Shown here in pieces: positions 34,657 through 59,894 of a stretch of DNA of 64,000 bases. The translations under genes were made by a program, and so were the position numbers. Origin of the DNA: an uncultured Methylomirabilota bacterium (GTDB lineage: Bacteria; Methylomirabilota; Methylomirabilia; Methylomirabilales; 2-02-FULL-66-22); contig OY970067.1 of NCBI GenBank assembly GCA_963705305.1, positions 4,128,001 to 4,192,000 of the forward strand, read 5' to 3'. The notes under the pieces were generated by a model that had not been told where the DNA came from, searched no databases, and saw only the letters and a program-made list of their open reading frames with translations. The number at the start of each line of letters is the position of its first letter. Within the stretch, counting starts at the first letter, position 1.

Positions 34657-34690
34657 AAGCCCCACGGCGGCCCTCCACGTTGCCCCACGT

Positions 34691-35420: not shown

Positions 35421-35433
35421 CGGTTTTCCCCTT

Positions 35434-35928: not shown

Positions 35929-35931
35929 GAC

Positions 35932-36875: not shown

Positions 36876-36989
36876 ACGACACCCCACGGCTGGAGGCCCC
36901 CGGACAAGGCATAGTCAAGCGGCCTTGCGGCGTCCCGAAATGGCGAGGCGAGGCCGAATTTATGCCCGTCTCTGCATCTCTCTCCACAT

Positions 36990-37177
36990 GTTGGCAGTTG
37001 GCAGAGTTGGCAACAGGGGGTCCTATAGACCCCCTTGTGTTGCCACAAACTCATTTTCACGCTGCCACCAGCTTTATTCATTTCTGCGTAACCCATCAGA
37101 ATTCATACAGTTGGCAGTTGCCACAACTCCCCCTTGCCAGCTTGCCAACTCATAGGAATGCCGCTTGCGAGTTGGCA
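36990..37177. other. Putative replication origin with iterons
   Basis: About ten GTTGGCA/TTGCCA copies in both orientations, hairpin GGGGGTC-ctata-GACCCCC and an AT-rich core, just downstream of the helicase. Confidence 0.65.
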
Positions 37178-39182: not shown

Positions 39183-39382
39183 CGGCCGCTCGCGACGGCT
39201 TCTTCGAGACGGAGTTTCTCCGCCGCCGCTTCGAGTACTGTGACTAAAACGCGGCGGGCATGTCTAGGGTCCTTCGCCAACAGACGTGCCCACTGAGGCG
39301 AGACGCCAAGGCGGGCGGCGTAGTCGATAGACTGCACGCCGAGCAGCCGGGCAAGTACCAGAGGGTCGGTAGTGGTTCGCAT
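39179..39382 (-). CDS. Small Cro/HTH-like protein
   Basis: YAARLGVSPQWARLL; ATGA overlap with the primase gene. Confidence 0.55.
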   Translation of the reverse strand: MRTTTDPLVLARLLGVQSIDYAARLGVSPQWARLLAKDPRHARRVLVTVLEAAAEKLRLEEAVASGR

Positions 39383-39386
39383 GCCG

Positions 39387-39412
39387 CAAGGGTAGAGACA
39401 CTCCTACCCTTG
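39387..39412 (-). promoter_or_regulatory. Inverted repeat (operator) over the promoter of the replication operon
   Basis: CAAGGGTAG-N8-CTACCCTTG; TACCCT lies 6 nt before ATG 39382. Confidence 0.5.
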
Positions 39413-39442
39413 GAGCAATCCCTTGGAAATTGCGCTCAGTTT

Positions 39443-40241
39443 CTATTTTCCAGATTTTTTGCGGGAGAGACGGAGGCCCACCGCGTTCAGGTAGCGAATC
39501 TTTCCGCGGAGGCGCTCCCGGGCTTTCGGGTCGGAGGGAATCGTTACGCTGAGGATCTTTCGGGCGACCTGCCACACGTCCATGCCGTCCTGTGTGCCCT
39601 GATATACACGTCGCGCGAGTTCTGGATCAACTTGCGACTTGCCAGACTTCGGGGGCTTCGCTTGTCCCTTCGGACGTTCCTGGGGCTCGCGCGGGTAGTC
39701 GAGCGCTCTCTAGACTGGCAATCTCCAGCCAATGCTTGCGCGTGGGCATTTCGCCGGCTGGCACCTCATAGCGAAACGCACCGGTGATGCGGTCCTCGGT
39801 GATACGAATCGGATTGTCGGGGAGGGGAGTGCCGACCGTCACGGATTTCGGCACTCTCCGAGCCGCTCGGCGGAGACGTTCCCTCATTCCCTCATCTGTG
39901 GCCTCTTTTTCCAGGATGGCCAACGCCGCCTGCTGAGGTAGGAGAGGGCGATCCTCACAGACCCGATGAAACTTCGGGACGTACTCTTTGATGCGATCAA
40001 GTAGGAGCCAGGACAATTCAGCAAGCCGGTCCACTGGCTCGGGCCCCAACGCTTCCCATCGGGGTTCGAGTTTTCGCACGAGCTTATAGACCGGATGGTC
40101 ACACAAATTGAGATGCTCGGCCAGGGCGGCGGCGAAATAGTAGAAATGGCTTCTGACCTGTGGATGCTGCGTAAGCTCTAGAGCCAACTCTGCCGGCCGG
40201 ATAACCGTTCTGTCCAGAAACTTTGTTTGTCTGAGAACCAT
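39443..40241 (-). CDS. Hypothetical regulator-like protein (probable frameshift near 39700)
   Basis: ORF 39627-40241 continues in another frame as ...VDPELARRVYQGTQDGMDVWQVARKIL...LRGKIRYL..* (HTH-like). Confidence 0.5.
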
Positions 40242-40318
40242 CGCTCTCCCTGTAGAGCTCCCCTGGAGGTCTCGCGGGCCAGGTCGGCAGAGTCCGGCTT
40301 CCGGTCGCCATCAATTAG

Positions 40319-40585
40319 CTAATAGAAGGGCGTTCTGTTCTTGCGCCTTCCCCTGATGTCTGTGGCCTGCTCAAGCTCACGAATCCTTCGATCCTTCTCA
40401 AGCAGTAGTTCCTCAATCCCTGCAATCTTAGTCTTTGCTTGGGCTAGGGCGTCCAACAGTTCGGCCAGTTTCATTTTGCTCTCGGCCTTTTCGGGCGAAG
40501 CATCTGCGCGCCTGATTGACCGGGCGATCCCTGTTGCTGTCTTGATACTCGCCAGGACATCTTGAATGGAGGCCAAGTCCGACAT
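40319..40585 (-). CDS. Coiled-coil hypothetical protein
   Basis: SIKTATGIARSI...KLAELLDALAQAK...LLEKDRRIRELE. Confidence 0.55.
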   Translation of the reverse strand: MSDLASIQDVLASIKTATGIARSIRRADASPEKAESKMKLAELLDALAQAKTKIAGIEELLLEKDRRIRELEQATDIRGRRKNRTPFY

Positions 40586-40729
40586 GTCCATCTCCCTGTC
40601 AAAACGTGCCCGCAAACGTGCCCACGGCGAAAGAAAACCGCCGGAAATCACGCCACTTCAGCGGAAAGCATAGCACATAACCCCTTGTAAATACACGATA
40701 TTGAAAGGGTAGGGGAGGCCTGGCTTGGC

Positions 40730-40774
40730 CTCATAAGCCCTGTGTCGGTGGTTCGACTCCACCCGCCGCCACCA
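40730..40774 (+). repeat. attR core (displaced tRNA-Met 3' half)
   Basis: CTCATAAGCCCTGTGTCGGTGGTTCGACTCCACCCGCCGCCACCA. Confidence 0.92.
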
Positions 40775-40820
40775 GACGTGATCGCTCGTTGACCCTCGCC
40801 AGAGGCTCTCTGGGATCGCG

Positions 40821-40846
40821 CCGGGAGGACAACCCCCGGTTTTTTT
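40821..40846 (+). terminator. Rho-independent terminator (original tRNA terminator)
   Basis: CCGGGAGG-acaa-CCCCCGG followed by T7. Confidence 0.7.
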
Positions 40847-40859
40847 ATTCCCGGACGCA

Positions 40860-41312
40860 TCAGGCGAGGTGCTCGCCCCGGTTGCGGCCTTCGGCCGCCA
40901 GCAAGCGCTGCACGGTGGTTTTCAGCAGGACCAGGGTGGCCTCCGGGTAGCGGAGCAGGAACGCGCGGAATCGCTGGTAATCGAGGCAGAGCAGCACCAC
41001 GTCGGTCGCCGCCTGGAGGGTGGCGGTGCGGGCCATATTCGAGAACATGCCATATTCGCCCAGCAGCTCTCCCCGCTCGACGGTCCGCACCGGCCGGGAT
41101 TGCCCCGGCAATACGACGTTAAGCATGCCGCTGGCCACGACATAGACACTGCCGGAGACCTCGCCCGCCTCGAACAGGATCTCTGATTCCCGCAAATGCT
41201 CCGTCCGCATCATTTCCGCGAGGGTGGCAAGCTCCGCCGGCGGAACGCCCGTGAACACCGGGCAGGCGCCCAGGACACTGGTCTTTTCGGCCATGCTCAG
41301 GGTGGTTCTCAT
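40860..41312 (-). CDS. Stand-alone cyclic-nucleotide-binding domain protein
   Basis: LFEAGE..YVVASG, GELLGEYG...RTAT; no HTH; ATGA overlap with the ABC stop. Confidence 0.87.
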   Translation of the reverse strand: MRTTLSMAEKTSVLGACPVFTGVPPAELATLAEMMRTEHLRESEILFEAGEVSGSVYVVASGMLNVVLPGQSRPVRTVERGELLGEYGMFSNMARTATLQAATDVVLLCLDYQRFRAFLLRYPEATLVLLKTTVQRLLAAEGRNRGEHLA

Positions 41313-43855
41313 GCTCGCTGAAGCGTGGTGCGGAAGATCTCCGACGCTTCCTCCAGCTCCTGGAACGTGCCGCTGGCCGCCAGCCGGCCGCCATGCATGA
41401 GCTTGATGTCGTCCGCCTCGCGGATGAAATTCAGATCGTGGCTGACGGTGATGACGATCCTGTCTCGCCTCCACTGCCGCAGCAGCTCGGCAACCGCGCT
41501 GCGGCTGGCAGGGTCGAGAGCCGATGTCGGCTCGTCCAGCACCACGATCGGTGTGCGGCGCAAGAGCGCGCGGCAGAGCGCCACCGTCTGGCCCTGACCG
41601 CCGGAGAGGTTGCTGCCCAGCCGCCCGACCTCGCACTCCAGGCCGAGCCGTGTCAGGCAGTCGTTCAACCCCGCCTGTTCGACAAAGCCCAGCAGGCTTT
41701 GATCCAGGAGGCGGCTCGCCCGAGTATTGGGGACCTCCACGACGCCAAAGATCAAATTCTCCCGCCAGGTCAAGCCGGGGTGCACCTCGTCGGCGACAAA
41801 GGGGCGCCAGGCACCCGCCAGGAGCTGCTGCAGCAGCTCGATATCAGCGGCAAACACCTTGCGGGTTTCGGGCGCTCGCAAGGCCTCCACACCTCCATCG
41901 CTCGCTAATTCGGCTAAAGAGCTAGTCAGGCCGATCAGCAACAGCGACAATCCTTGCTTGGGCGACACGGCGGGTTTGTCAGCCAGATCCACGCAGGATG
42001 ATCGCAGCTTCCACAAGGGCTCGCTTACCGAGAAGGGAGAGAGCTGCGCATACACGTGGTAATTGGAGATACTGAGCAGGTGCCGGTTCTCGCGCAGCAG
42101 GCTCTTTCCCAGCGCCATCAGCGCCGAGCGGCTGCCGTTTGGCGGCAGGCGTTCCAGCCGGCGGGCGGCTTTCTTGCTTAACAGCAGCTCCACGCACTTG
42201 GCCCGCTCGCAGCGGCCGCCCAGCAGGCATTCCAGCACCCAGTGCTGCGAGTCCACGCTGCCGTGCTCGAAGGGCAAGACCAGAGCCTGGCACTCGTCCC
42301 GCAGGCGCTGGCGAAGGCTATTCCGCAGCTCGCCGATGCGCGCGGCGATCGCAGGCTGCGCGCCGCCTTCACCCGCCGGCATGTCCAGGGCCTTCAGCCG
42401 GCAAATCTTGCCCAAGCCTGCCCGCTCGACCACCTCCATGTCGGCGGCGGAAAGGGGGATCTCGCCTTCGGTCTGTCCAAAGTAGAGGTTTTCGCGGATC
42501 GTCGTATTCAAGAGGGCCACGGATTGCGGCATGATTGAGAAGAGGGCTGCGCGCCGTCGGTCATCGATCGCCTGGAACGGGAGGGATCCGTAGCGGACGT
42601 CGCCTTCCTGCGCTTTCAGGCGCCCCAGCACCAGTTTCAGCAGGGTGGATTTGCCGGAGCCCGCGCCGCCCACGATGGCGGTCCAGCGATCCGGACTGAA
42701 CACGGTGCTGACGCCGGCCACGCCGCCTTGTTGCGTGCCATCGGGGCTGGTATAGCGATAGGTGACGTTGTCCAGGGTGATCGGCTCGGCCGCCCCCTCC
42801 TGAACTGCCGAGTCTGCCGAGCTACCAGTCTCGACGCTCTGAGTCTCGTACTCAAGGAGCCGGTCCAAACTGACGCGCGCAATCTGGAAATCCAGGCGCA
42901 GGAAGACCAGCTCCGAAGATTCGCTGAACAGCGAGGGCAAGCGCAGCACGATCACCGGCACCAGGGCGAGAGAAAGACCGCTGATCCCCCCGCTCCGCAT
43001 CTGATATACCACCACGATCATAGACGCAAACGCCAGCAGGTACGCGACCGTATTTCTAATCCGCAGAGCCCCGTTGAGCCCGATGTACTTGAGAAACGTC
43101 CTGCTCCGGTCCTCCAGAAGCTGCAGGAACCGTCGCCGGATGTTCTCGTACGCATTTGAAACCTGAACTTCGGGCGCGGCCCGCAGCAGATCCTCGAAGC
43201 GTGACTTAATTCTGTCATCCTGGACGAGATAGTTCTGGTCCATGTTGGCCACTGGTTTGGTCGTTCGCAGCGTCCAAAGAACTCCGACAAGACAGGTCGC
43301 AATGGCCACGAGCGCCAGCCGCCAGTCCTTGAGAAAGAAGAAGACCAGATTGCCGGCCACCAGCAGCGAGCTCCACCAGACCTTGGTTACTCCGAGGCGG
43401 CGCTCACTTACTCGAGAGAGGTCCACGGCCAGCCGGTTCACCATTTCCGCCGGAGAATGACGGCTGAAAAAGGAGTCCTCTTTTCGCAGCAGGTGGAGCA
43501 GGATTTCCGTCTCCAGATCGTCCTTGGTGCGAATGGCGAGCTTGCCGCCGAGACGGGCTCTCCAGAACTCCACCGCGCCCGACGTGAGCCGGGCAGCCAC
43601 GAACAGGCCCAGAAGCAGGAAGGGCAGGCTGATTGCCAGCGAATCGGCGAGCGTGTGCGAAAGTGCCGCCAGGCCGTGCTGGGCAGCGGCAGCCGGCGCT
43701 TGCCCTTGGCCCAGCGATTGCGTCAGCAGGTCGAGCAGATCGTTCTCAACGTAAACAAGCACAGATGCCAGGCTGCCGGCAAGGATCAAGGAGATCAGCG
43801 CCGCACGGTAACGCGGGTGCCAGAGGGCGAACCAGGAAGCCAGCCCCGATTTCAT
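41309..43855 (-). CDS. Fused ABC exporter (TMD+NBD) with large insertion in the NBD
   Basis: TM helices; GGAGSGKST; RENLYFG...RENLIFG; LSGGQ; LDEPTSALD; VSH. Confidence 0.88.
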   Translation of the reverse strand: MKSGLASWFALWHPRYRAALISLILAGSLASVLVYVENDLLDLLTQSLGQGQAPAAAAQHGLAALSHTLADSLAISLPFLLLGLFVAARLTSGAVEFWRARLGGKLAIRTKDDLETEILLHLLRKEDSFFSRHSPAEMVNRLAVDLSRVSERRLGVTKVWWSSLLVAGNLVFFFLKDWRLALVAIATCLVGVLWTLRTTKPVANMDQNYLVQDDRIKSRFEDLLRAAPEVQVSNAYENIRRRFLQLLEDRSRTFLKYIGLNGALRIRNTVAYLLAFASMIVVVYQMRSGGISGLSLALVPVIVLRLPSLFSESSELVFLRLDFQIARVSLDRLLEYETQSVETGSSADSAVQEGAAEPITLDNVTYRYTSPDGTQQGGVAGVSTVFSPDRWTAIVGGAGSGKSTLLKLVLGRLKAQEGDVRYGSLPFQAIDDRRRAALFSIMPQSVALLNTTIRENLYFGQTEGEIPLSAADMEVVERAGLGKICRLKALDMPAGEGGAQPAIAARIGELRNSLRQRLRDECQALVLPFEHGSVDSQHWVLECLLGGRCERAKCVELLLSKKAARRLERLPPNGSRSALMALGKSLLRENRHLLSISNYHVYAQLSPFSVSEPLWKLRSSCVDLADKPAVSPKQGLSLLLIGLTSSLAELASDGGVEALRAPETRKVFAADIELLQQLLAGAWRPFVADEVHPGLTWRENLIFGVVEVPNTRASRLLDQSLLGFVEQAGLNDCLTRLGLECEVGRLGSNLSGGQGQTVALCRALLRRTPIVVLDEPTSALDPASRSAVAELLRQWRRDRIVITVSHDLNFIREADDIKLMHGGRLAASGTFQELEEASEIFRTTLQRA

Positions 43856-45231
43856 GCGCGGACACCCTTTAGCCGAACCTTTTCAGTGATGACCCGTAAC
43901 ACTCCTGATTGTACGCTCTCGGAGGCGAGAGCACGGTCGCGGATGCGGTCGCGCAGCTGTTGCAGGAAGGACTCGCAGTATCGCATTGCGTCGAATTGCT
44001 CAGGTTGAAACCGATGCAGGTGCGGACATCCGCCCCCACAGCCGGGGAGTGCGGGGCATTCCGCGCAGCGCTTGTACTGCAACCAGTCGTACATCAGCCA
44101 TGGGACCAGGTTGGCCAAGTTCGTCGGCGTGCCGGTCTCCACCGAGCCGTAGCTTCGCTCCGCCAGTCCGACGTCCTCCGGGCATTTGTACAGCAAACCG
44201 TCCGGTCCGATCACCATGGAGTGGCGTGTTGTGGCGCCGCATCCGATCGGCTCGGGCCGGCACACGTCATCGACAGGCAGGCGCCTCGCTGTGGCCCGGC
44301 GCCGCTCGCGCGTGCTCGCCTGCGCGTAGATCAGATAGGGCATGGCGGTAAACCGGCATCCGCGCGGCCCGCACTCGGGTACAAGAACGTAGGCAAAATG
44401 AATCTTCTGGAGATGCTGGTGCAGCTTGCGTCGGATCAGCGCGTCATACAGCCGGTCGAACCCCGCCGGCTCATCGCGTCCCAGGTTAATCCGCAAACGT
44501 ATGGGAATTCTTCTGGCCGCAAACGCCAGGTTGTCCAAAACCAATTCCGCCGTGGCACGACCGCGCCGGTCGCGCTTTTCAGCCGCGGGAATATCCACGG
44601 TTACCTGGATGTATGTCAACTCGCACGTTTCCAGCCTGCTGACCACGTCGCGACTCAGCAGCGTGCCATTGGTCACCAGCGTTGCGGAGTAGCTCATACC
44701 GGCGTGCTTGCACGCGGGAATCAGCAGCGAGCTGACCCGGGAGATTGTTTTGATCGCAAGGAGCGGCTCTCCGCCGAACCAGCAGACGTTTATGGCCCTC
44801 TTGCCGCTGGCAGCGGTGGCGATATGCTGCACAACCTGGTTTTCCCGCTCCGCGGTCCAGGCCCGTGCCGCCCTGGAAGCTTGAGCGGCACCTTCAAAGC
44901 AGTAGCTGCAGCGCAAGTTGCAGGCCAGCGTCGGAACGAGCGTCACCCCGAGACTGGAGTCGCTGAATTGTCCAGACAGGTAGTGCAGCCGAACGAGATC
45001 AAGCTCATCGACATCCCGGGGAACGAGAAAACCGTGCGACTGGAGAAAGGCCAGACCCTCAGCGGCCTCGGCCTGATCGCAGTCCAACTGGCGGCCGGAA
45101 GCGAGATACTGCGACCATGTTTCCTCCGCGAGTACCACCAACGCCCCGGTGAAGGTGTTGAGGATCGCTTTGCGGTGGCGTGGCAGATCAACCGCCAGAT
45201 TGAATCGCGATGGAGCCCAGACCTGCGACAC
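43852..45231 (-). CDS. Radical SAM/SPASM peptide maturase with N-terminal RRE-like region
   Basis: PSRFN...LNTFTGAL; CNLRCSYC; WFGGEPLL; CGA..GPDGLLYKC; CAECPALPGCGGGC; GTG 45231 after AAGGAAGG. Confidence 0.88.
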   Translation of the reverse strand: MSQVWAPSRFNLAVDLPRHRKAILNTFTGALVVLAEETWSQYLASGRQLDCDQAEAAEGLAFLQSHGFLVPRDVDELDLVRLHYLSGQFSDSSLGVTLVPTLACNLRCSYCFEGAAQASRAARAWTAERENQVVQHIATAASGKRAINVCWFGGEPLLAIKTISRVSSLLIPACKHAGMSYSATLVTNGTLLSRDVVSRLETCELTYIQVTVDIPAAEKRDRRGRATAELVLDNLAFAARRIPIRLRINLGRDEPAGFDRLYDALIRRKLHQHLQKIHFAYVLVPECGPRGCRFTAMPYLIYAQASTRERRRATARRLPVDDVCRPEPIGCGATTRHSMVIGPDGLLYKCPEDVGLAERSYGSVETGTPTNLANLVPWLMYDWLQYKRCAECPALPGCGGGCPHLHRFQPEQFDAMRYCESFLQQLRDRIRDRALASESVQSGVLRVITEKVRLKGVRA

Positions 45232-45655
45232 GAATTTCCTTCCTTTGCCGGGACCGTCTCTTGGGCCTTGCCGAAATGGCGACACGGTCACGGCTCCGGC
45301 CCCTCCCGAGTGGACGTCGCCACGAGCCTCCGCACCTCTGACGCCCGGGCGCGGGAGCTGGGCGGGGCGCCCTCCAGCGTGAGAAGCTCGCGCCAAGTCT
45401 GCGAGATCGCGGGGGGTGGTGTGGCGCCAAACGGGTTCGGGGGAATCGAGGTCGGGCGCGCAGGGCAGTAGCCGCTCCACGACACTGCGGCAGGGCTTGG
45501 CCACCCAGGCGGGAGCACACAGATCCTGCTACGGGCGGTGCCGGTCACCGGCGGGGGTAAAGCCGGGGACGGCAGGGAACCGCCGATAGACGACCATTCC
45601 GCAGCATGAAACCCAGCCGCCGGACCAACGGGGTTAACCCGACCCTCTGAAAGCG

Positions 45656-45862
45656 TCAGCCCCTGACTCCGCCGATCGCCGCAAAACCGCAGCCCTGTCC
45701 TTCAACGTCGCCCTTCTTCTTCTTGGGTGCGCGCAGCACCTTGGCGAGATCAGCGACCGACGCCGACTTTTTCACCTGCAGGTCTGTTCCTTCCGGAAAC
45801 ACCAAACTCACTCGGTTCTTGCCCTCAACCACCACTTTCACGCCCTCGGCTTTCTTCACCAT
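45656..45862 (-). CDS. Candidate RiPP precursor peptide (68 aa)
   Basis: Strong SD AAAGGAG; Lys/Val-rich leader and Gly-rich tail GDVEGQGCGFAAIGGVRG; lies between two rSAM genes. Confidence 0.65.
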   Translation of the reverse strand: MVKKAEGVKVVVEGKNRVSLVFPEGTDLQVKKSASVADLAKVLRAPKKKKGDVEGQGCGFAAIGGVRG

Positions 45863-46050
45863 TGCTGTCGCTCCTTTGATTGATCTCGCCCCCGGCGCCT
45901 ATGATCACGGAGACGGCGGCCGCCGCGGGCACCCGCCCGGCGGTCTAGACCCTCCGGCCCGCTGAATCGCCGCAACTGGTAGCACATAACCCCGGATAAA
46001 ACAACAGAAATTCCCTCCTCGGCATCCCTTCGGCCGGCGGTGTTCCGCTT

Positions 46051-47436
46051 TCACCCGCCGTCCGCAAAGAGGGAGCGGATACGATCCAGGGCCTCGGGGT
46101 GAAAGCGGTACAGGAACCTGTGGGTGATGGAGGCGCGGGCAAACTGGGCCCGCATCAAGTCGCACCAGAGCTTCTGCATGGGGTCGCTGCGGCCCGAAGG
46201 CAGCAGAGCGCACTTCTGGCATTGAAACGCGCATCCCCCTCCGCACCAGGCGAAAGCCCAGCAGCGGGCGCACTCTTCATCTGCCGGCCGCACCCTCGGC
46301 ATCGGCAGTGGGGCGCTGGCGTCCAAGGTTTCGCAGTCTCCCAGCGCCGGCACGTCCGCCCTTCCATACAGACTGGGGCAAGGATATACGCTTCCGTGGG
46401 CATCGATGTAGATTTCCCGCCGCCCGCAGCCGCACAGCCCGTCCGGACCTTTCGGTTGGGATGAAATCTGCGCCGCGAAACGCATGTCCACCTCCGGACT
46501 GCCCTCAATCGCGGATTGGACGAAGTATCGGTAAAACTTCGCGCGCTGCAGCATGAGCTCCCGCAGATCGGATTTCGACCACGGGCTGGAATCATTCGCC
46601 CCGGCGGTCAGATACAGGAAGCTGATGCGGCGAAACCCGCGAGTCCGAAGCTCCTTGGCAATGGCAGTCAGATCGGAATTGCCCGGGGTAAGGACGACCT
46701 GCGCATCCACCCTGGCATCCTTGCTCGCCGCGCGCAGCCGCCGCATCCCGCTCAGGGCCGCCTGGTAGGAGCCGGCCCCATCCGGATAGCGGCGGTGCCG
46801 GTCGTGGCCATCCTGCAGCCCGTCAATGCTGATCTGGACGGTCAGGTCCGGCGCCACCAGGTCTTTCGCGAGGGCATCCGTGATCAGGGTGCCATTGGTC
46901 CCGATGCTGAAATGCGGACTCTTGCCCAGCCGGCGGGCCTTGCGGCGGACGGTATTGACCAGAAAGCGGCCGACGGACCAGTTCGCCAGCGGCTCGCCGC
47001 CGAGGAAGGAAATCAGCGGCCTGTCCACGGGGACCGCCAAAATGTAGTCGGCAATGCGCTCGGCCGTCGGCCGATCCAGACGGCTGGAGGGTGCGCAATT
47101 GGCCGAATCAAAGCAATAATCGCAGGCCAGATTACAGCGGCCGGACAGCCGCACCATGAAGGTGTGCGGCCACTGGTGCCCCGACTCGCGCTGTTTCGGC
47201 CGCGTCCTTGGTAGGCCGCCGAGTCCCTGGAGAAAGAAGATTTCCGGCTGCTCGACGGCAAATGCGAGGATGGCCTCTTGGAGCTCCTCCGCTGCGCGCT
47301 GCTCCGGCTGTGCGGCACGCACCTGCCGGCATGCGGGACCCGACGTGCCGTTTCGAATACCCCGAGCCTTTGGTGTGCGGTCTGCCGGTGCCACGCAGGA
47401 CCCTCGCGTCTCCGGACCCGCGTTCCCTTCTCTCAT
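46051..47436 (-). CDS. Radical SAM/SPASM protein (anSME/thioether-maturase-like)
   Basis: CNLACDYC; FLGGEPL; SIDG..HDRHR; CGCG..GSVYPC; CARCWAFAWCGGGC. Confidence 0.87.
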   Translation of the reverse strand: MREGNAGPETRGSCVAPADRTPKARGIRNGTSGPACRQVRAAQPEQRAAEELQEAILAFAVEQPEIFFLQGLGGLPRTRPKQRESGHQWPHTFMVRLSGRCNLACDYCFDSANCAPSSRLDRPTAERIADYILAVPVDRPLISFLGGEPLANWSVGRFLVNTVRRKARRLGKSPHFSIGTNGTLITDALAKDLVAPDLTVQISIDGLQDGHDRHRRYPDGAGSYQAALSGMRRLRAASKDARVDAQVVLTPGNSDLTAIAKELRTRGFRRISFLYLTAGANDSSPWSKSDLRELMLQRAKFYRYFVQSAIEGSPEVDMRFAAQISSQPKGPDGLCGCGRREIYIDAHGSVYPCPSLYGRADVPALGDCETLDASAPLPMPRVRPADEECARCWAFAWCGGGCAFQCQKCALLPSGRSDPMQKLWCDLMRAQFARASITHRFLYRFHPEALDRIRSLFADGG

Positions 47437-47601
47437 GGTGCGACCGGAGGCGGTCTCTTGAACGGCGACGATACCATACGACCAGCCGACGGTAAATCCC
47501 CAAGAGGCGCCCCGCCCGGCATGAGGTTCATCTTGACTTTTACTGGGGAATGGCGTACGGCAATGGTGGCTGAAGGCTGACCGTCCGCGTGGGGGTGATG
47601 C

Positions 47602-48267
47602 ATGGCGCCAAAGATCGCGGTACTGCAGGCCTATCTCGGGATTTCGTCTCAGAGCGAGGAGGGCGCGATCCTCCGGCTGCTGATCGAACTGGTGGCCCAA
47701 TGCGTGGGGGCGCAGGAGGGCTCTCTCCTGGTGTTCGATGAAAAGAAGAATGACCTGGTATTTGCCATGACGGTTGGCGACACGTCGTCGGAAAAGGTCC
47801 TGGTCGGCCAGCGGGTTCCGCTGGGACAGGGGATCACCGGGCTGGCGGCGCAGCTGCGCGAGGTGCAGATCGGGGCACCGACCTTCAAGACGCGTCAGGC
47901 CAAGCACCGCGGGGGAGCCCCTCAAGAGCCGCAAGCGGTGCTGGCAGCGCCCATGCTGGTTTCCGACCGGCTGATCGGCGTGCTGACGGCAGTCAGCTTC
48001 GCGCCAGGGAAACGGTTCACCAGCGGCGACGCGCTCTTGTACGGCCGCCTGGCCGCGGTCGCCGGAGTCGTGGTGGATCAGGCGCACCGGCTGCGGGCCG
48101 TCACCGCCCTGCAGCGCGGGCAGCGTCCGCCTGGGGGGATCGGCCGGGCGCTGCGGCTCGAGAACGCCATCGTCGATGCCGTCACGCGGTTGACTCGCTC
48201 GCGGCCGCACGCCAAGAGCGACATTGCCAGGCTGCTGACGGCCGTGGCTGACCTGCTCGAGCCGTAA
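47602..48267 (+). CDS. Stand-alone GAF-domain protein
   Basis: GSLLVFDE..LVF; VPLGQGITG; LAAPML..LIGVL. Confidence 0.82.
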   Translation: MAPKIAVLQAYLGISSQSEEGAILRLLIELVAQCVGAQEGSLLVFDEKKNDLVFAMTVGDTSSEKVLVGQRVPLGQGITGLAAQLREVQIGAPTFKTRQAKHRGGAPQEPQAVLAAPMLVSDRLIGVLTAVSFAPGKRFTSGDALLYGRLAAVAGVVVDQAHRLRAVTALQRGQRPPGGIGRALRLENAIVDAVTRLTRSRPHAKSDIARLLTAVADLLEP

Positions 48268-48278
48268 TCGGGGGAGAC

Positions 48279-49040
48279 GTGGCCGCCCGGACGCTGTTGC
48301 ATATCCTCAAGGCGGGATTCAGGGACCTCAGGCGGCGCAGGCGGGAGCCGGTCACGGTGGCCGTCGTGGATAGCGGCATCGACGGCACTCACCCGCAGCT
48401 GGCGGGGCGGATCGTTCGGGCTGTCCAGGTCACCCCGCAGGGCAGGCAGCAGCGGGTCATCGAGAGCCCTGTGCCGAGCAACCAGGATGTCTACGGTCAC
48501 GGCACCGCCGTCGCCAGCATCATCTGCAAGCTTGCACCCAACGCCAGAATCCTCGACGTGCGCGTGCTCGACGCCGAGAACGTGTGTACTGGAGACACGC
48601 TGATCGCGGGCTTTCGCTGGGCGGTCGAGTCCAGGGCCCGGATTATCAACATGAGCCTGGCGGCCAACGCCCGGTTCGCCGCGGCGCTGCGCCAACTCTG
48701 CGATGCCGCCTACCGTCAGAACCAGCTCGTCGTCGCCGCGCGGCGCAACATGCCGCTCACCGACCAGGGCTTTCCCGCCGAGGTGGCCACCTGCATCGGG
48801 GTGGATATTAAGAAGTTGCGGTCGCAATTCGAGCTTATATTTCAGGACAACCACATTATCGAGTTTGCGGCCCATGGCGAGGGAGTGGTGGTGGCTGCAG
48901 CTGGCGGCGGTCACACCACGATGACGGGGACCAGCTTTGCCACGCCCGCGGTGAGCGGCCTGTGTGCGCTGCTGGTGGGCGCGTACCCCGATCTCCGGCC
49001 GTTCGAGGTGAAGAGCGTGCTGCGCGCCTTCGCCGTGTGA
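48279..49040 (+). CDS. Minimal cytoplasmic S8 (subtilisin-like) serine peptidase
   Basis: Catalytic triad DSGID / HGTAVA / GTSFATP; no signal peptide or prodomain. Confidence 0.9.
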   Translation: MAARTLLHILKAGFRDLRRRRREPVTVAVVDSGIDGTHPQLAGRIVRAVQVTPQGRQQRVIESPVPSNQDVYGHGTAVASIICKLAPNARILDVRVLDAENVCTGDTLIAGFRWAVESRARIINMSLAANARFAAALRQLCDAAYRQNQLVVAARRNMPLTDQGFPAEVATCIGVDIKKLRSQFELIFQDNHIIEFAAHGEGVVVAAAGGGHTTMTGTSFATPAVSGLCALLVGAYPDLRPFEVKSVLRAFAV

Positions 49041-49097
49041 GGGGGTCGGGCCGAAGGGGCGCCCTGCATTTGTGATGGGCCGAAACAGAGTCATCGA

Positions 49098-49838
49098 ATG
49101 GCGTGCTCTGCCAAGCTGGAGTTGGATCCGAAGAACTTCTTCCGTCTCTCCAACGGACGCCTGCTGACGGCCCCGCCGGAAATCCCGTTCAGGGAAATGT
49201 TCTCCGAGATCGTCGAATCGGGCTGTTACCTGCCTTCGGCCGAATTTCGGATCGGGGCAGGGGAAATCGTGCTTGATATCGGGGCGAACGTCGGCCTGTT
49301 CTCGATGTGGGTCGCCCTGAACGTCCCGTCGGCGAGAGTCTACGCATTCGAGGCTGCCTCCGACAATTATCTGGCGCTGGCCGAGAACGTCCGGAGCAAT
49401 CACCTGACAAGCGTCTCGGTCCACCATTACGCTGTGTCGGACGGCGGCAGCTCCCGGGTAACCCTCTACCGCGGATACCATGGCGGGATTCATTCCATCT
49501 GCCCGGAGTACCGGAATTGGCCTGCTTCGGCGAAAAGGGAGCGCCGGACGGAGAAAGTCCGTGCCATCACGCTGTCGCAGATCTTGCGGCGATTTCAGAT
49601 CGAGCGCGTCGATTTTCTGAAGCTGGGTTGCGAAGGGGCCGAATACGAGATTCTCTTCTCGGCGTCGCGGGCAACGCTCTCGCGGATTCGAAGGATCGTC
49701 GGCGAGTACCACGACCTGGACGCCGAGCGGCACGGAGGAGTCCTGAAGGCGTTCCTGACGCAGAACGGATTTCACACCGCTTTCAAGGCGGCCGGGCGGG
49801 GGAGGCCATGGGGAATATTCGCGGCGCTTTCCCGCTGA
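49098..49838 (+). CDS. FkbM-family methyltransferase
   Basis: LDIGANVGLFS, VYAFE, KLGCEGAEYEIL, GEYH. Confidence 0.85.
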   Translation: MACSAKLELDPKNFFRLSNGRLLTAPPEIPFREMFSEIVESGCYLPSAEFRIGAGEIVLDIGANVGLFSMWVALNVPSARVYAFEAASDNYLALAENVRSNHLTSVSVHHYAVSDGGSSRVTLYRGYHGGIHSICPEYRNWPASAKRERRTEKVRAITLSQILRRFQIERVDFLKLGCEGAEYEILFSASRATLSRIRRIVGEYHDLDAERHGGVLKAFLTQNGFHTAFKAAGRGRPWGIFAALSR

Positions 49839-49873
49839 CCGATCGCAGAGCTCTCCCCGAGACGATTCGCTAG

Positions 49874-51637
49874 ATGATACATTCGATCGTACTGCCGGGG
49901 CGCTTCCCGACCACGTTCTACGCCTATCCGGAGTTCACCCTCCTCACCCGGCGGGTTCACGAAGAGGTCTGCTTCGAGAACCTCAATCTCCTCTTTTGGG
50001 ATTACCTGTTCTCCGCGGATTTCCTGGGATTCCTGCGGCGCCATCTCGGTCCGGCATCCTCCCCGCACTTCGACTTCCTGTCGGCCGTCATCGACTCCGG
50101 CACCATGGCCACGCTCCGCGACCGGAAATTGTTCTATGACGCGGAGCGATACCTGGCTGCCATCTTCTGCCTCGGCGGTTACCTGGGAGCGGCCTCCGAT
50201 CTCCTGCGGCAGATCAGCGGAGGCACCTTGCAGGGGATCTCGCTCTATGGCGTGAGCTACGACACGCGGCGCCCCCTCGGAGAGGTGCTGGCCTATGCCG
50301 GAAGCGACCGCAACCCCTTCATGGATTTTTGCCGGACGCGGCCGGAGCCGATCCGGGAGATCTTCGATGCGGATATCGTCAGCGCCGTGACCTACAATTA
50401 CACCGATTTCCTGCATCTGGGTGTCCTGAGCGAGCGGTACCGGCGGCCCGGCACCAGCGTGTTCGTCCATGGCCACAGCTGGGAGAACAACGCCGTCGAC
50501 TACCTGATCGAACACGCCGGCCGGTATGCCGAGTTCCTCCGGCACATCGACGGCATCGTTCTTGGGGAGGATGACCTCGCCGAGACGTTCAACCGGCTTG
50601 CCGAGGCGGGAGCGACGTCGGGAGTCCACAATCTCTACCGGTTCGGGGACGACCCACCTTCCGACCGCAGCAGCCGGGGCCGGCGGCGCAATCCTCTTGA
50701 TGACCTCGATTTCATCCGCTTGCGCCAGGAGGCGGAGCGGCAGCGCAGCAAGATATTCTCTCCCGAGCTGGTGACCCTGTACCGCCTCTCCGCGCGGGGC
50801 TGCTACTGGAGCCAATGCGCCTTCTGTCGGCACAACAGCCGGCACCCCGGGGGCCCTGACCGTCGGGATCAGCAGGCGGAGGATCCAACCCTGTGGCCCG
50901 TCAGGATGCGCCGGCTTTCCGCCATCTCCCCCGTCCTTGTCTTCTGCGACCAGGGAATCGATCCGGAAGTGGCGGCGGCACTGGCTGCCGCACCCCGGGA
51001 TGCCGACGGCGGGACCACCTGGTCGCTTCGGACGCGAATCGATCCCCGCTGGGATGCCCGCCGTATCGCGACGGTGGCCCGCGGGGGGTGCGCCGAGCTG
51101 ATCTTGGGGATGGAGTCCGTCAACGACGAGACGCTGCGGCGGATGCGCAAGACTCCGCTGGGCGGAGAGGCATACCGTTCCCTGGTAAGGCAGATCCACC
51201 GCGAGTCCGTCTCCTGCGGCATATACAACCATTACTGCATGATCTATGGCTACCCGGGCGAGACCTATGAAGAATGCCGACAGACCCTCGGCTTCCTCGC
51301 GGACCTCGTCCGCAGCGCTCCCAAGACGACCTTCAGCCTGAACCGGTTCCAGCTCTTGTTCAAGTCGGACATCTACAATTCTCCCGAGGCGTATGGGATA
51401 CGCTCGGTGACCAAGGCCCCCTTCCTGTCCAACGCGTTTTGGTATGATGAGCCCGCCAGCACACGCAGCATCGAGCTGGTGGAAAATGGGCAGAGTGACT
51501 TCTATCGGGCAATAGGCTACCGCGAAGATATCCTGACCAACCGGATACTTCTGGAGACGGTTTCAGCCTTCATCAACGACAGCGGCCACGCGCCGCTGCT
51601 CAAAGCCGGCCACCCGAGAAATCCGTTCGTGGCGTAG
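49874..51637 (+). CDS. Radical SAM protein of B12-binding/methyltransferase-like type
   Basis: RGCYWSQCAFC (CX4CX2C), LGMES..LRRMRK, YGYPGET. Confidence 0.75.
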   Translation: MIHSIVLPGRFPTTFYAYPEFTLLTRRVHEEVCFENLNLLFWDYLFSADFLGFLRRHLGPASSPHFDFLSAVIDSGTMATLRDRKLFYDAERYLAAIFCLGGYLGAASDLLRQISGGTLQGISLYGVSYDTRRPLGEVLAYAGSDRNPFMDFCRTRPEPIREIFDADIVSAVTYNYTDFLHLGVLSERYRRPGTSVFVHGHSWENNAVDYLIEHAGRYAEFLRHIDGIVLGEDDLAETFNRLAEAGATSGVHNLYRFGDDPPSDRSSRGRRRNPLDDLDFIRLRQEAERQRSKIFSPELVTLYRLSARGCYWSQCAFCRHNSRHPGGPDRRDQQAEDPTLWPVRMRRLSAISPVLVFCDQGIDPEVAAALAAAPRDADGGTTWSLRTRIDPRWDARRIATVARGGCAELILGMESVNDETLRRMRKTPLGGEAYRSLVRQIHRESVSCGIYNHYCMIYGYPGETYEECRQTLGFLADLVRSAPKTTFSLNRFQLLFKSDIYNSPEAYGIRSVTKAPFLSNAFWYDEPASTRSIELVENGQSDFYRAIGYREDILTNRILLETVSAFINDSGHAPLLKAGHPRNPFVA

Positions 51638-51666
51638 AAGCTTGGCGGCTCGAGATTCTTCGCAGT

Positions 51667-52965
51667 TCACGGCGAGCGCTCGGTCCCTCGGAACGGGCGC
51701 GCGGCAGTCCCCGGCGTCCCGCCGGGCCGGACCGAGATCCGGGGACGGATTCGCGAGAGCTCCCTCAAGAAGATCAGGCCGCTGAGAAGACACACCCCGC
51801 CCCCCAGGGCGATCGTAGCCGGGGTGCCGATGCGACCGGCGAGAGCGCCCGAACACAGATTGCCCAGCGGCACGGTGCCCATGAAGGACAAGGCGAAAAG
51901 GCTCATCACCCGGCCCCGCTTATCCGCATCGGCAATCATCAGGAGAATGGTGTTGCTGGAGGCCATGATCAGCGTGATCCCGCAGCCGACCATGACGAGG
52001 AGCGCCACCGAGAGGCTGAGCGAGGGCGACAGGGAAAATAGGATGAGTCCGAGGCCGAACAGGCCGGCCCCCAGCACGATCGTCCGATCCAGCCCGAACC
52101 CGGTGCGCCGAGACCCCAGCCAGGCGGCGCCCAGAAGCGCCCCCATGCCGATGGATGCGACCAGGATGCCCAGGGTGTGGGGTCCCCCCTTCAGCACCGT
52201 GGCCGCCATGATCGGCATCAGGACGCCGTACGGGCTGCCGGCGAAGCATATGCACCCAACAAAGAGGAGGACGGCCCGGATCGGGGGAGAAGCGCACACA
52301 TAACGGATCCCCTCGACAAGCGTGGGAAGGACCGGCCCGGATGGGGTCTCTGCGCTTCCCGCCGAATGCCGCAGGGCGAGGAGGGCACCCAGGATGGCGA
52401 GGTAGCTGACCCCATTCGCCAGAAAGCACACCCCTTCGCCCCCCCAGGCAATGACCATCCCGCCCAGCGCGGGGCCGATCAGACGGGCGGAGTCATACAC
52501 CAGGGAGTGCAGGGCGATGGCGCTGGCCAGCTGCTCCCGGCTTTCCACGAGATGCGCGAGCAGCACCTGGCGGGCTGGGGCATCGATGCCGTTGAGGATT
52601 CCGAGGACGCAGCTCAGGCAGAGAATGATAGGAACGTCGAGGCGGCCGGCAAAGACGAGCAGTGCCAGCAGGACAGCCTGCAGCATGGCAAGCGATTGGG
52701 TCGCCAGCATGATCCGGTGCGGACGCACCCGATCGGCGAGGACGCCGGCGAGCAGGGCGGCTGGCACAGCGGGGAGTTCGCCCACGAACCCTACCAGCCC
52801 GAGGATGAGTGCCGAGTGGGTCAGCCGGTACACCAGCCAGCTCATTGCCACCATTTGCAGGAAAGTCCCGATCAGGGAGGGGGCCTGTCCTGCGATGAAG
52901 AGGCGGTAGTTTCTCGATCGGAGGGCCGGCCAGCCCCGCATCAGCGCTCCCCATAAGTCACACAT
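51667..52965 (-). CDS. MFS exporter (H+ antiporter/MFS_3-like)
   Basis: ALRSRNYRLF, GVLADR, DAPARQ, RGRVMS. Confidence 0.9.
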   Translation of the reverse strand: MCDLWGALMRGWPALRSRNYRLFIAGQAPSLIGTFLQMVAMSWLVYRLTHSALILGLVGFVGELPAVPAALLAGVLADRVRPHRIMLATQSLAMLQAVLLALLVFAGRLDVPIILCLSCVLGILNGIDAPARQVLLAHLVESREQLASAIALHSLVYDSARLIGPALGGMVIAWGGEGVCFLANGVSYLAILGALLALRHSAGSAETPSGPVLPTLVEGIRYVCASPPIRAVLLFVGCICFAGSPYGVLMPIMAATVLKGGPHTLGILVASIGMGALLGAAWLGSRRTGFGLDRTIVLGAGLFGLGLILFSLSPSLSLSVALLVMVGCGITLIMASSNTILLMIADADKRGRVMSLFALSFMGTVPLGNLCSGALAGRIGTPATIALGGGVCLLSGLIFLRELSRIRPRISVRPGGTPGTAARPFRGTERSP

Positions 52966-53097
52966 TGTCACCGCCTCTGTCGCGCGGGTGGAATGAACGT
53001 GTGAAAAGCCACGCCCGTATGCTATCATTCACGAGTTTGAAGCCAATCAATATTTCTGACCTGGCATCATCCATTGCGCCGTCGACGCCGGGTGGCC

Positions 53098-54198: not shown

Positions 54199-54232
54199 GG
54201 GGCGGTCGACGGAGGCGGCTGGAGACGGATCG

Positions 54233-55342: not shown

Positions 55343-55352
55343 GCGGGGCAGG

Positions 55353-59851: not shown

Positions 59852-59894
59852 AGCGCCTCCTGGACGAGCGCTCGGAACGTTTCCACCCCGGCGC

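Follow-up and report, generated by a model that had tools for sequence, protein, structure and literature searches.

A candidate RiPP gene cluster with two SPASM radical SAM enzymes and sensor-domain partners beside its protease and exporter

Several described peptide-maturing systems resemble parts of the locus analysed here. In the Qhp system, as laid out in PMC7876137, cross-linking comes first, followed by leader removal in the cytoplasm and then export, and the S8 protease, ABC exporter and radical SAM (rSAM) enzyme of our cluster mirror QhpE, QhpF and QhpD as presented there. The likeness to QhpD, QhpE and QhpF acting on QhpC extends to a SPASM rSAM, an S8 protease lacking a prodomain, an ABC pump and a small substrate that bears a leader. 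However, the scores of the cluster against the QhpD and QhpE profiles are 142.4 and 107.7 bits, below the cutoffs of 453 and 165, and the cluster has neither a QhpC-like substrate nor its three-Cys pattern. It also has one SPASM enzyme more, a pair of methyltransferase-type enzymes and partner proteins with GAF and cNMP-binding domains. Those ORFs of the window (the whole stretch of DNA that was analysed, 64,000 nucleotides) that were scanned with Pfam gave none of the qhpA, qhpB or qhpC subunit domains.

Ranthipeptides and SCIFF peptides, matured by enzymes such as PapB and CteB, share with our cluster a Cys in most cores, and one of the two SPASM enzymes (rSAM1) has its best NCBIfam and PDB matches among them. 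In contrast, rSAM1 stays below the PapB and SCIFF cutoffs (340 and 425), and the leader of the precursor is unrelated to any named leader family. The substrates of the PapB family carry motifs of the Cys-X3-Asp/Glu type, whereas the core in the window, GCGFAAIGGVRG, has one Cys and no acidic residue after it. The other SPASM enzyme (rSAM2) has matches to the TIGR04463, Clo7bot and geopeptide maturase families, all uncharacterized, but falls below all of their cutoffs and belongs to a family of its own, of about 60 clusters.

Proteusins of the polytheonamide and pythonamide type combine a B12-type rSAM with an FkbM-like methyltransferase on a peptide with a long leader, as our cluster appears to do. 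EreM, for example, is described in PMC11285071 as an FkbM-like backbone N-methyltransferase that acts on valines in a proteusin. The peptide of the cluster differs in having no NHLP/Nif11 leader and in its short cores of 12-25 aa. Additionally, we take the SPASM enzymes of the cluster not to be epimerases of the PoyD type.

Finally, the NHLP/Nif11 export cassette (TIGR03896, TIGR03796/03797) likewise encodes a cNMP-domain protein together with a peptide-export ABC protein. The matches are weak, at 32.9 bits to TIGR03896 for the cNMP protein (cutoff 161) and 153 bits to TIGR03797 for the ABC protein (cutoff 709). Our cNMP protein is a single domain of 150 aa against a profile of 317 positions, and our ABC protein lacks a C39 peptidase and has about 245 aa inserted into its NBD. 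No curated family names the cluster, and the original view of it as a RiPP-type cluster of no recognized class is supported. A search of open-access PMC and bioRxiv full text found no paper describing the peptide motif or the gene set.

Gene layout and proposed roles

The features of the locus, in window coordinates, are as follows.

40860-41312, minus strand: cNMP-binding protein, 150 aa, PF00027 at 65.6 bits (cutoff 27.5)
41309-43855, minus strand: ABC exporter, 848 aa, TMD and NBD (PF00664 and PF00005)
43852 to about 45231, minus strand: rSAM2, a SPASM rSAM with SPASM motifs, best NCBIfam match TIGR04463
45656-45862, minus strand: ORF of the putative precursor peptide, 68 aa, with homologues and the ribosome-binding site AAGGAG
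46051-47436, minus strand: rSAM1, a SPASM rSAM with SPASM motifs and below-cutoff matches to PapB, QhpD and SCIFF maturases
47437-47601, no strand: divergent intergenic region between rSAM1 and the GAF gene, presumed to hold promoters
47602-48267, plus strand: GAF-domain protein, 221 aa, PF13185/PF01590
48279-49040, plus strand: S8 subtilisin-like protease, 253 aa, PF00082 at 99 bits
49098-49838, plus strand: FkbM-family SAM-dependent methyltransferase, 246 aa, TIGR01444 at 103 bits
49874-51637, plus strand: class-B-like rSAM enzyme, 587 aa, PF04055 at 22 bits, below cutoff
51667-53028, convergent to the plus-strand operon: MFS gene

All ten ORFs that the original prediction had placed here were confirmed at the same positions in the window. 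The gene order it gave for the two operons is present, as are the two ATGA overlaps, rSAM2/ABC at 43852-43855 and ABC/cNMP at 41309-41312. Its divergent gap of 165 bp holds when rSAM1 starts at the ATG at 47436, and becomes 207 bp from the GTG at 47394. It had also mentioned the convergent MFS gene, which is not part of the conserved set: at the loci of relatives that were examined, no equivalent lies next to the cluster. For rSAM2 the GTG at 45231 is the more likely start over the first start of the ORF at 45504. The precursor ORF has its AAGGAG 8 nt 5' of the ATG.

Scans of 40500-53200 gave 4 promoter-like sites, not clearly above the 1.5±1.4 in shuffled sequence, with no sigma-70-like site called in the rSAM1/GAF intergenic region, and 7 terminator-like sites against 8.0±3.4 in shuffles. 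No riboswitch was seen, as Rfam at gathering thresholds over 26000-59000 returned only tRNA. We considered whether the minus-strand operon continues into the ORFs beyond the cNMP gene and rejected this for all three: those at 39627-40241 and 40319-40651 are both inside an integrative element, and the one at 40648-40860 overlaps the attR repeat of that element.

The explanation that we favor, with a probability of roughly two in three, is a horizontally spread RiPP cluster of five two-gene modules whose peptide is modified, cut and exported. The first module would consist of the precursor and rSAM2; binding of the conserved leader is probably the task of the RRE-like domain at the N terminus of this enzyme. 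The second brings in rSAM1 as a SPASM enzyme from a thioether-forming neighborhood. In the third, the FkbM protein and the class-B-like rSAM together may add O/N- and C-methyl groups. The fourth would comprise the GAF protein and the S8 protease, which is short, cytoplasmic and QhpE-like and would remove the leader, probably after V-x-G-Q. In the fifth, the ABC exporter, partnered by the stand-alone cNMP-binding protein, would secrete the product.

The precursor family and its co-inheritance with the enzymes

The 68-aa ORF reads as a genuine precursor peptide. Its leader covers residues 1-56, ends in GDVEGQ and is followed by GCGFAAIGGVRG. Searching 1.84 billion representatives gave 19 matches at E<=0.001, of which 16 are peptides of 66-105 aa. 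The other three, P0038, P0044 and P0047, are long proteins (1347-2186 aa) of repeat or coiled-coil type whose Pfam domains are unrelated, and they were dropped from the peptide alignment. Close homologues number 5 beyond the peptide of the window itself (6 listed at E<=0.1 including its own, among 8 candidates). The family shows the pattern generic to RiPPs, a conserved leader, here with a V-x-G-Q end, ahead of a hypervariable core that varies in length (12-25 aa) as well as in sequence. V8, F22, P23, L43, V53, G55 and Q56 are invariant in the alignment. The leader is under purifying selection, its codon changes being mostly synonymous (for example 25 synonymous and 8 non-synonymous over 58 leader codons between copies L014a and L015a). 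No Pfam or NCBIfam family matched the 19 members at E<=1, apart from scattered single noise matches, and an NHLP/Nif11-type leader was absent from all of them in the same two databases.

Most cores contain a Cys, found in 16 of the 19 aligned members and in 16 of the 17 copies taken from loci, and missing from 3 of the 19 family representatives and from the copy in genome G014. The other recurring element is a tail, ...AIGGVRG, which is often conserved and is the sole core segment common to the precursor copies of the window, its genus-mates and the Verrucomicrobia. An ending of the form ...(V/I/L)RG is found in only 12 of the 19 representatives. The tail is also kept by Cys-less precursors, namely the G014 copy, P0006 (16 member sequences) and P0033.

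The gene conserved beside a maturase is a further mark of a RiPP precursor, and here the precursor adjoins an orthologue of rSAM2 or rSAM1 in all eight genomes that carry the peptide, and again in a distant locus (L024). Absence of such conservation was what the original prediction had named as its own disproof, and the peptide proves to be kept near homologous rSAM genes throughout. L024 is a metagenome locus of 39% GC in which a 38%-identical peptide is followed by a 35%-identical rSAM2 homologue, and the pair adjoins two bona fide B12-rSAMs. It is one locus, from a metagenome search with a single distant peptide, and the wider context of the family is drawn from it.

All nine genes are found in seven of the eight genomes, in three different arrangements. 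The window has everything at one locus. In two genomes (G013 and G014) the set is split: one contig carries rSAM2, peptide and rSAM1 divergent from FkbM and the class-B-like rSAM, and a second contig carries ABC, cNMP, GAF and S8 in that order. Four Verrucomicrobia MAGs carry a two-peptide form. The eighth genome, the G254 MAG, has no detected ABC or rSAM2 gene, and its contig ends exactly at that spot. The two operons therefore occur together elsewhere, even where they lie on different contigs, and the other disproof named in the original prediction, that they never do so, does not apply either. Across the arrangements the pairs ABC-cNMP, GAF-S8 and FkbM with the class-B-like rSAM always stay adjacent. 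Since the same genes are together again in seven other genomes, the layout goes beyond chance, and the three gene orders show that the modules are inherited as one system, which makes the cluster a clean case of co-inheritance.

The precursor family, which Pfam and NCBIfam leave unnamed, and the SPASM maturase family that goes with it (about 60 sequence clusters) offer a good lead for genome mining. The bacteria that carry them are uncultured and belong to Methylomirabilota-like and Verrucomicrobia lineages, groups from which, to our knowledge, almost no natural products have been characterized.

Protease, exporter and their sensor-domain partners

The S8 protease is presumably the leader peptidase. 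Its PF00082 match spans aa 25-249, leaving no space for either a signal peptide or a prodomain, and D31, H74 and S219 are invariant. Directly 5' of its gene in all eight genomes is that of the GAF protein, which has no output domain and a mean column identity of 81% across 8 orthologues. The ABC exporter has no C39 peptidase domain, and its insert separates the Walker A motif (aa 396) of the NBD from LSGG (aa 750); the ABC_tran match falls in two stretches, and the orthologues measure 844-854 aa. When the insert (aa 470-730) was searched against the Atlas, all clusters returned, at 0.91-0.92, were unnamed. The gene of the stand-alone cNMP-binding protein lies directly 3' of the ABC gene in all seven genomes in which both were found, and judging from the ATGA overlap it is translationally coupled to it. 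The phosphate-binding cassette of a cyclic-nucleotide-binding domain is marked by a Glu and an Arg. The cassette of the window protein, GEYGMFSNMARTAT, looks intact and has both, next to the PF00027 match. Among the orthologues the Gly-Glu is invariant, and the key Arg is replaced by His in 2 of 7.

The strict adjacency of ABC with cNMP and of GAF with S8 through three arrangements is the sole support for a functional coupling of these proteins. The gating of processing or export by cyclic nucleotides that the original prediction had inferred is still a hypothesis. If both sensors act as switches, a second messenger or a metabolite would exert post-translational control over when the peptide is released. 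The full version of this idea, a new RiPP class in which the GAF protein controls a QhpE-like peptidase and the cNMP protein controls an insert-bearing ABC exporter, together with a new class-B-like rSAM of the Cx4Cx2C type, is one we regard as unlikely. A role as ligand gates, if borne out for the GAF and cNMP proteins, would make the cluster an uncommon case of post-translational control over RiPP release.

Alternatively, the GAF and cNMP proteins could serve the protease and exporter as adaptor, chaperone or immunity subunits that need no ligand, or be ordinary regulators that act elsewhere, a tentative reading to which we give distinctly less than even odds. Pfam shows no output or DNA-binding domain in either protein, and two of the seven cNMP orthologues have His for the phosphate-binding Arg. 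GAF domains bind many types of ligand, and the domain here indicates none in particular; the conserved gene set also contains no cyclase gene. Arguing against this reading, however, is the persistence of both adjacencies through the rearrangements and across two phyla. The invariant Gly-Glu of the cNMP cassette and the high conservation of the GAF protein also speak against it, as does the existence in NCBIfam of a cNMP family called 'bacteriocin-type transport-associated' (TIGR03896), to which the match is weak. The nearest cyclase-type genes outside the conserved set are a GGDEF gene at 16148-17368 and an ORF with a cyclase domain at 63302-63988.

Putative modifying enzymes, proposed chemistry and genomic setting

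Both rSAM1 and rSAM2 carry CxxxCxxC and the SPASM motif C-x2-C-x5-C-x3-C. The best NCBIfam scores of rSAM2 are 183.3 bits for TIGR04463 (cutoff 525), 170 for Clo7bot TIGR04334 (600) and 154 for geopeptide TIGR04280 (400), and its alignment with these three profiles takes in the N-terminal domain and almost the entire protein; against the PapB-family profile NF047865 it reaches 90.3 bits (cutoff 340). In its AF2 model (pLDDT 89.5) the N terminus forms a strand/helix domain, and residues 8-437 align with CteB 5WGG/5WHY from CteB residues 1-2 onwards at Z 26-27, while TigE is also among the top structural matches (Z 25.1). CteB and TigE are both RiPP maturases bearing an RRE, and since rSAM2 aligns with them end to end, the model predicts an RRE-like N-terminal domain at the level of fold only; an RRE-type domain on the maturase is another hallmark of RiPP systems. 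The rSAM2 family is discrete, with 60 clusters at E<=3.4e-82 and at least 38% identity before the next match at 30% and E=6e-43, and it stays beside the precursor family even in the distant branch represented by L024.

By its matches, rSAM1 is nearest to the thioether-forming PapB, QhpD and SCIFF maturases (158.1 bits for PapB and 115 for the SCIFF maturase, besides the QhpD score given above; E=1.6e-27 to CteB 5WGG). It has a short conserved N-terminal extension, and its orthologues measure 426-433 aa. Given that no enzyme reaches the curated cutoff of a named maturase family, the chemistry cannot be transferred from them. Our proposal that rSAM1 may cross-link the near-invariant Cys after V-x-G-Q to a carbon of another core residue falls somewhat short of an even bet. 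Against a cross-link of the PapB or QhpD kind is the lack of an Asp/Glu acceptor in the core of the window. Additionally, the core Cys is absent in some members, and a thioether thus cannot be the sole conserved modification, nor even the essential one.

The FkbM protein is above the TIGR01444 cutoff of 37.7, and its gene lies directly 5' of that of the class-B-like rSAM in every locus compared. The latter enzyme does not have the canonical CxxxCxxC; three Cys are present at an unusual spacing, Cx4Cx2C (C310, C315, C318), invariant in 17 of 17 family members. The family is narrow, with 24 clusters at 63% identity or above and the next at 26-27%. The enzyme had been called a B12-type rSAM, and this label is a matter of architectural resemblance only. 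In favor of it, Foldseek places AprD4, TokK, MgmA, TsrM, CysS and OxsB on top at E 1e-7 to 3e-4, weak matches of a poor AF2 model (17 close homologues, pLDDT 53.2, TM about 0.3) in which strands and helices alternate through the N-terminal half. Among Atlas clusters, those nearest to it also bear the name B12-binding rSAM, with PF02310 in 19% of one of them. The protein itself gave no match to the B12-binding domain PF02310 at E<=0.01. Its score against the PhpK family is 51.7 bits (cutoff 600), and by BLASTP one of the two B12-rSAMs of L024 matches it weakly (E=2e-5) and the other does not. The set of two SPASM enzymes, the FkbM protein and the atypical class-B-like rSAM matches no named class, so that the modifications of the product are probably combined in a new way.

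A different chemistry within the same cluster would have the enzymes decorate the aliphatic residues of the tail (A-I-G-G-V-R-G, V-R-T-P) in the manner of proteusins, with no Cys thioether: the SPASM enzymes would contribute epimerization or C-C chemistry, the class-B-like rSAM would methylate carbon, and the FkbM protein would methylate N or O in the backbone or in side chains. The Cys-less precursors that keep the tail fit this well, the more so as G014 retains all four modifying genes at full length, and so does the tail being the one core segment shared so widely. TigE, a SPASM enzyme described as valine-cyclopropanating in PMC10878394, is among the top matches of rSAM2, although structural similarity at that level does not fix the reaction. 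The precedent of EreM, an FkbM-like enzyme that N-methylates proteusin valines (PMC11285071), and the B12-rSAMs that again adjoin the distant family member point the same way. On the other hand, the leader is not of the NHLP/Nif11 type, the nearest families of rSAM1 are all thioether formers, and the ...RG ending is absent in 7 of the 19 representatives. We consider this chemistry doubtful.

That the peptide gives rise to a cofactor or to a small protein subunit, on the model of QhpC, PQQ or mycofactocin, and not to a secreted bioactive RiPP, is improbable. The rSAM, S8 and ABC trio does resemble QhpD, QhpE and QhpF, which mature an enzyme subunit, and cofactor precursors have conserved C-termini that the conserved tail here recalls. 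However, the core is hypervariable in length and sequence, no Qhp structural-subunit domain was found among those window ORFs that were scanned with Pfam, and the Verrucomicrobia genomes carry 2-4 precursor copies each, some far from the enzymes, which is typical of diversifying secreted peptides. A cluster this rare and patchy is also not a housekeeping system.

Returning to the RiPP cluster that we favor, the eight genomes span two phyla, and it is rare in both. Its immediate neighbor in the window is a tRNA-Met integration hot spot that contains mobile-element genes. Such a spot can gather unrelated cargo, but with nine genes together in seven of eight genomes in three orders, including a two-locus split, and with the neighboring MFS, glycosyltransferase and STAND genes not recurring in the relatives' loci examined, an accidental neighborhood is highly improbable. 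The right flank (58400-62000) gave only short paralogous DNA matches in five genus-mates. Among public sequencing runs no RNA run was listed as containing the sequence, and one DNA run matches 0.25 of the sampled words.

Gene layout and the precursor family

An ORF map with Pfam and NCBIfam scans reproduced the gene layout of the original prediction, which had proposed a RiPP cluster.

Genes of the cluster and the adjoining MFS gene
40860-41312, minus: cNMP-binding protein
41309-43855, minus: ABC exporter
43852 to about 45231, minus: rSAM2, SPASM radical SAM enzyme
45656-45862, minus: 68-aa peptide ORF
46051-47436, minus: rSAM1, SPASM radical SAM enzyme
47602-48267, plus: GAF protein
48279-49040, plus: S8 protease
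49098-49838, plus: FkbM methyltransferase
49874-51637, plus: 587-aa radical SAM protein (class-B-like rSAM)
51667-53028, convergent to the plus-strand genes: MFS gene

Both 4-nt ATGA overlaps are present as claimed, and so is the divergent gap of 165 bp, which becomes 207 bp with the alternative rSAM1 start (GTG 47394). The SPASM label fits rSAM1 and rSAM2, both of which carry CxxxCxxC and a C-x2-C-x5-C-x3-C motif. A ribosome-binding site (AAGGAG) lies 8 nt upstream of the peptide ATG. Between the peptide gene and rSAM2 lies a spacer of 424 bp (45232-45655), versus about 125-170 bp in two same-genus relatives, and it may be the scar of a rearrangement merging two precursor genes into one; the peptide profile detected no second copy in the window's genome. 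Elsewhere in the window, two overlapping ORFs (7276-7923 and 7880-8242) share one D-isomer-specific 2-hydroxyacid dehydrogenase (7276-8242) between them, which suggests a frameshift or sequencing error.

On sequence grounds, the 68-aa ORF belongs to a real family of predicted precursors. Five close homologues (81-91% identity) came from a word-indexed search. Among 1.84 billion representatives, a profile search had 19 matches at E<=0.001, 16 of them peptides of 66-105 aa; the other three, long repeat proteins with unrelated domains, were dropped from the peptide set. In a 19-sequence alignment of family members V8, F22, P23, L43, V53, G55 and Q56 are invariant, and a leader of pattern ...L-x-F-P... 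ends in V-x-G-Q, downstream of which length and composition diverge. At least one Cys follows this junction in 16 of the 19, Trp or Tyr in many, and 12 end in ...(V/I/L)RG. Peptide copies taken directly from relatives' DNA have the same leader/core plan, with a core Cys in 16/17 locus-derived copies; the Verrucomicrobia cores approximate C-(Y/W/L)-x-H..., then (V)RTP-x-A-I-G-G-V-R-G. Between two Verrucomicrobia leaders (L014a and L015a, 58 codons) there are 26 third-position changes versus 8 at position 1 and 4 at position 2, or 25 synonymous versus 8 non-synonymous codon changes, and by this comparison the leader is under purifying selection. No Pfam or NCBIfam model rose above noise for any of the 19 members.

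Predicted modifying enzymes and a proposed maturation

Three uncharacterised RiPP maturase families in NCBIfam match rSAM2 over its full length, all under cutoff (TIGR04463 183 bits, Clo7bot 170, geopeptide 154). The rSAM2 family itself is discrete, with 60 clusters at E<=3.4e-82 and at least 38% identity and the next match at 30%. In a structure model built from a 45-sequence alignment (pLDDT 89.5, pTM 0.89) the N-terminal 90 residues form strands and then helices; residues 8-437 align with CteB (Z 26-27, 386-389 residues) and residues 1-445 with TigE (Z 25.1). These model alignments support, at fold level, the RRE-like label that rSAM2 had been given. The nearest NCBIfam families of rSAM1, also all under cutoff, are PapB (158 bits), QhpD (142), Nif11-peptide maturase (135) and SCIFF maturase (115), and in the PDB it matches CteB best (E=1.6e-27). 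Orthologues of rSAM1 range from 426 to 433 aa and have only about 55-60 conserved residues ahead of the rSAM core.

The 587-aa radical SAM protein matches PF04055 only below threshold; in NCBIfam the PhpK family comes closest, with 51.7 bits versus a cutoff of 600. It belongs to a narrow family, in which 24 clusters have >=63% identity before a drop to 26-27%, and a Cx4Cx2C motif is invariant in all 17 members. Its AF2 model is poor (pLDDT 53), yet the top Foldseek ranks go to class-B-type enzymes (AprD4, TokK, MgmA, TsrM, CysS and OxsB), and the nearest Atlas clusters are named B12-binding rSAM proteins; Pfam gave no match to the B12-binding domain PF02310. The label "B12-type" thus describes a resemblance in architecture, and we call the protein class-B-like. 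Because AprD4, the top structural match, is not known to use cobalamin, we go no further than to predict a methylase function.

The S8 protease has 253 aa with its domain at aa 25-249, leaving no space for a signal peptide or prodomain; its triad D31/H74/S219 is invariant and its best NCBIfam match is QhpE (107.7 bits versus a cutoff of 165). Pfam found no C39 peptidase domain in the ABC exporter. Its nucleotide-binding domain contains an insertion of about 245 residues, and about 354 residues separate the Walker A motif (aa 396) from the LSGG motif (aa 750); a segment T(I/W)RENL(Y/I)FG...AGL is duplicated, and 6 orthologues, of 844-854 aa, share the extra length. For the insert (aa 470-730) the Atlas returned unnamed clusters only.

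The 150-aa cNMP protein consists of one CAP-type domain. Its cassette, GEYGMFSNMARTAT, shows two features required for cyclic-nucleotide binding, Gly-Glu and Arg-Thr-Ala. The Gly-Glu is invariant, and the Arg is His in 2/7 orthologues. The NCBIfam "bacteriocin-type transport-associated" cNMP-domain family scores 32.9 bits, far under cutoff. Conservation is high in the 221-aa GAF protein, which offered no ligand hint; Pfam found no output domain in either protein. Two predicted cyclase genes lie in the window, a GGDEF diguanylate cyclase (16148-17368) and an adenylate/guanylate-cyclase-domain ORF cut by the window end (63302-63988), 24 kb and 12 kb off the cluster and outside the conserved set.

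In kind this is a known type of locus, a radical-SAM RiPP cluster with a protease and an exporter. The most likely maturation, in which every step is inferred, is modelled on Qhp, where according to PMC7876137 cross-linking comes first, QhpE then removes the leader in the cytoplasm, and QhpF carries out the export. By this analogy rSAM2 would bind the leader, rSAM1 and rSAM2 would modify the core, the FkbM enzyme and the class-B-like rSAM would methylate the peptide, the S8 protease would cleave at or near V-x-G-Q, and the ABC pump would export the product. An FkbM-like enzyme, EreM, N-methylates a proteusin, according to PMC11285071. For the product of rSAM1 our first guess is a Cys-derived thioether, and the chief weakness of this idea is the Cys-less precursors, namely the copy in a same-genus relative (G014) and the family representatives P0006 (16 member sequences), P0033 and P0046. 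G014 has a Cys-less precursor yet all four modifying genes intact. This leads to a rival reading, in which the conserved chemistry would lie on the aliphatic tail A-I-G-G-V-R-G instead of in a Cys thioether.

The original prediction had fitted the combination to no recognised class, and we agree. The precursor family, the discrete rSAM2 family, the atypical class-B-like enzyme and the fixed sensor-protease and sensor-exporter pairs are unnamed in the curated models queried, and we found no published description of them in open-access full text.

Gene order among relatives

The cluster consists of five two-gene modules in three arrangements. In two same-genus genomes (G013, G014) one contig reads rSAM2<pep<rSAM1 <> FkbM>class-B-like rSAM and lacks the GAF, S8, ABC and cNMP genes, which are contiguous on another contig as ABC>cNMP>GAF>S8. 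Four Verrucomicrobia MAG loci (L014, L015, L016, L018) read cNMP<ABC<rSAM2<pepA <> FkbM>rSAM ... pepB<rSAM1 <> GAF>S8, with two precursor genes each. A fifth (L017) has only the right half, because its contig begins 808 bp ahead of FkbM; a search of the rest of that MAG (G254) at E<=1e-30 recovered neither ABC nor rSAM2. Co-occurrence of the two operons, whose absence elsewhere would by its own terms have counted against the original prediction, is borne out by the complete nine-gene set in 7/8 genomes. ABC-cNMP, GAF-S8 and FkbM/class-B-like rSAM are adjacent wherever found, and it is this unbroken adjacency through three gene orders that speaks for possible direct partnerships of cNMP protein with exporter and GAF protein with protease.

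In G013 (L012, G013:C16) rSAM2 and the class-B-like rSAM (10034-11390 and 14142-15903) each fall into two tblastn pieces in different frames, which are frameshifts or MAG assembly errors. In L014 the class-B-like rSAM is separated from the second precursor gene by an additional rSAM2 paralogue (12316-13752), which has 479 aa and is 48% identical. Verrucomicrobia genomes hold 2-4 precursor copies, some of them orphans with no cluster enzyme within about 9 kb each side, contig permitting.

A distant family member, a 38% identical peptide on a metagenome contig of 39% GC, is directly followed by a 35%-identical rSAM2 homologue; upstream are two bona fide B12-binding rSAMs and an NAD-dependent epimerase/dehydratase-family gene. 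From this one locus, therefore, rSAM2 looks like the cognate maturase of the peptide family and a B12-type rSAM like its recurring companion.

The MFS gene is convergent as claimed, but has no counterpart in relatives' loci. The same holds for the genes to its right (53074-58427): two GT4 glycosyltransferases, one also matching a "GT4-conflict" family, and beyond them a 1024-aa STAND protein (DUF4062 + NB-ARC/NACHT + TPR) that looks like a defence-island gene.

Distribution and the neighbouring element

Within the window's phylum the peptide profile matched 3 of 251 genomes, and these three belong to a single genus; the remaining five carriers are Verrucomicrobia MAGs, and 400 further Verrucomicrobia genomes sampled gave no match. 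Together, rare carriers in two phyla and protein identities of 53-72% across them point to spread by horizontal transfer.

An integrative element of 13.9 kb (26817-40774) ends 85 bp from the cNMP stop codon. It is inserted at a tRNA-Met, whose 3' end recurs as a 48-nt direct repeat that marks the bounds of the element (26845-26892 and 40727-40774, 46/48 identical).

Features of the integrative element
26817-26892: tRNA-Met
26918-28267: integrase, after the tRNA-Met
30853-31887: Mu-transposase-like gene
33086-34219: DDE_3 transposase
37153-38604: AAA_25 protein
38592-39182: RepB-primase-like gene

Two sets of candidates were rejected as operon members: ORFs at 39.6-40.65 kb, inside the element, and a 70-aa ORF (40648-40860), which overlaps the attR repeat. 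Two genus-mates (G020, G005) carry other element remnants at the same tRNA, with no cluster homology within its next 17-19 kb, and in G013 the cluster and this tRNA are on different contigs. Next to the tRNA-Met of G020 lies a copy of window 30091-32770 with 91% identity. In the window, the Mu-transposase-like gene is closely preceded by three direct repeats of 47 nt that overlap one another (30110-30227; CTGAGCCACC...) and may be transposase binding sites.
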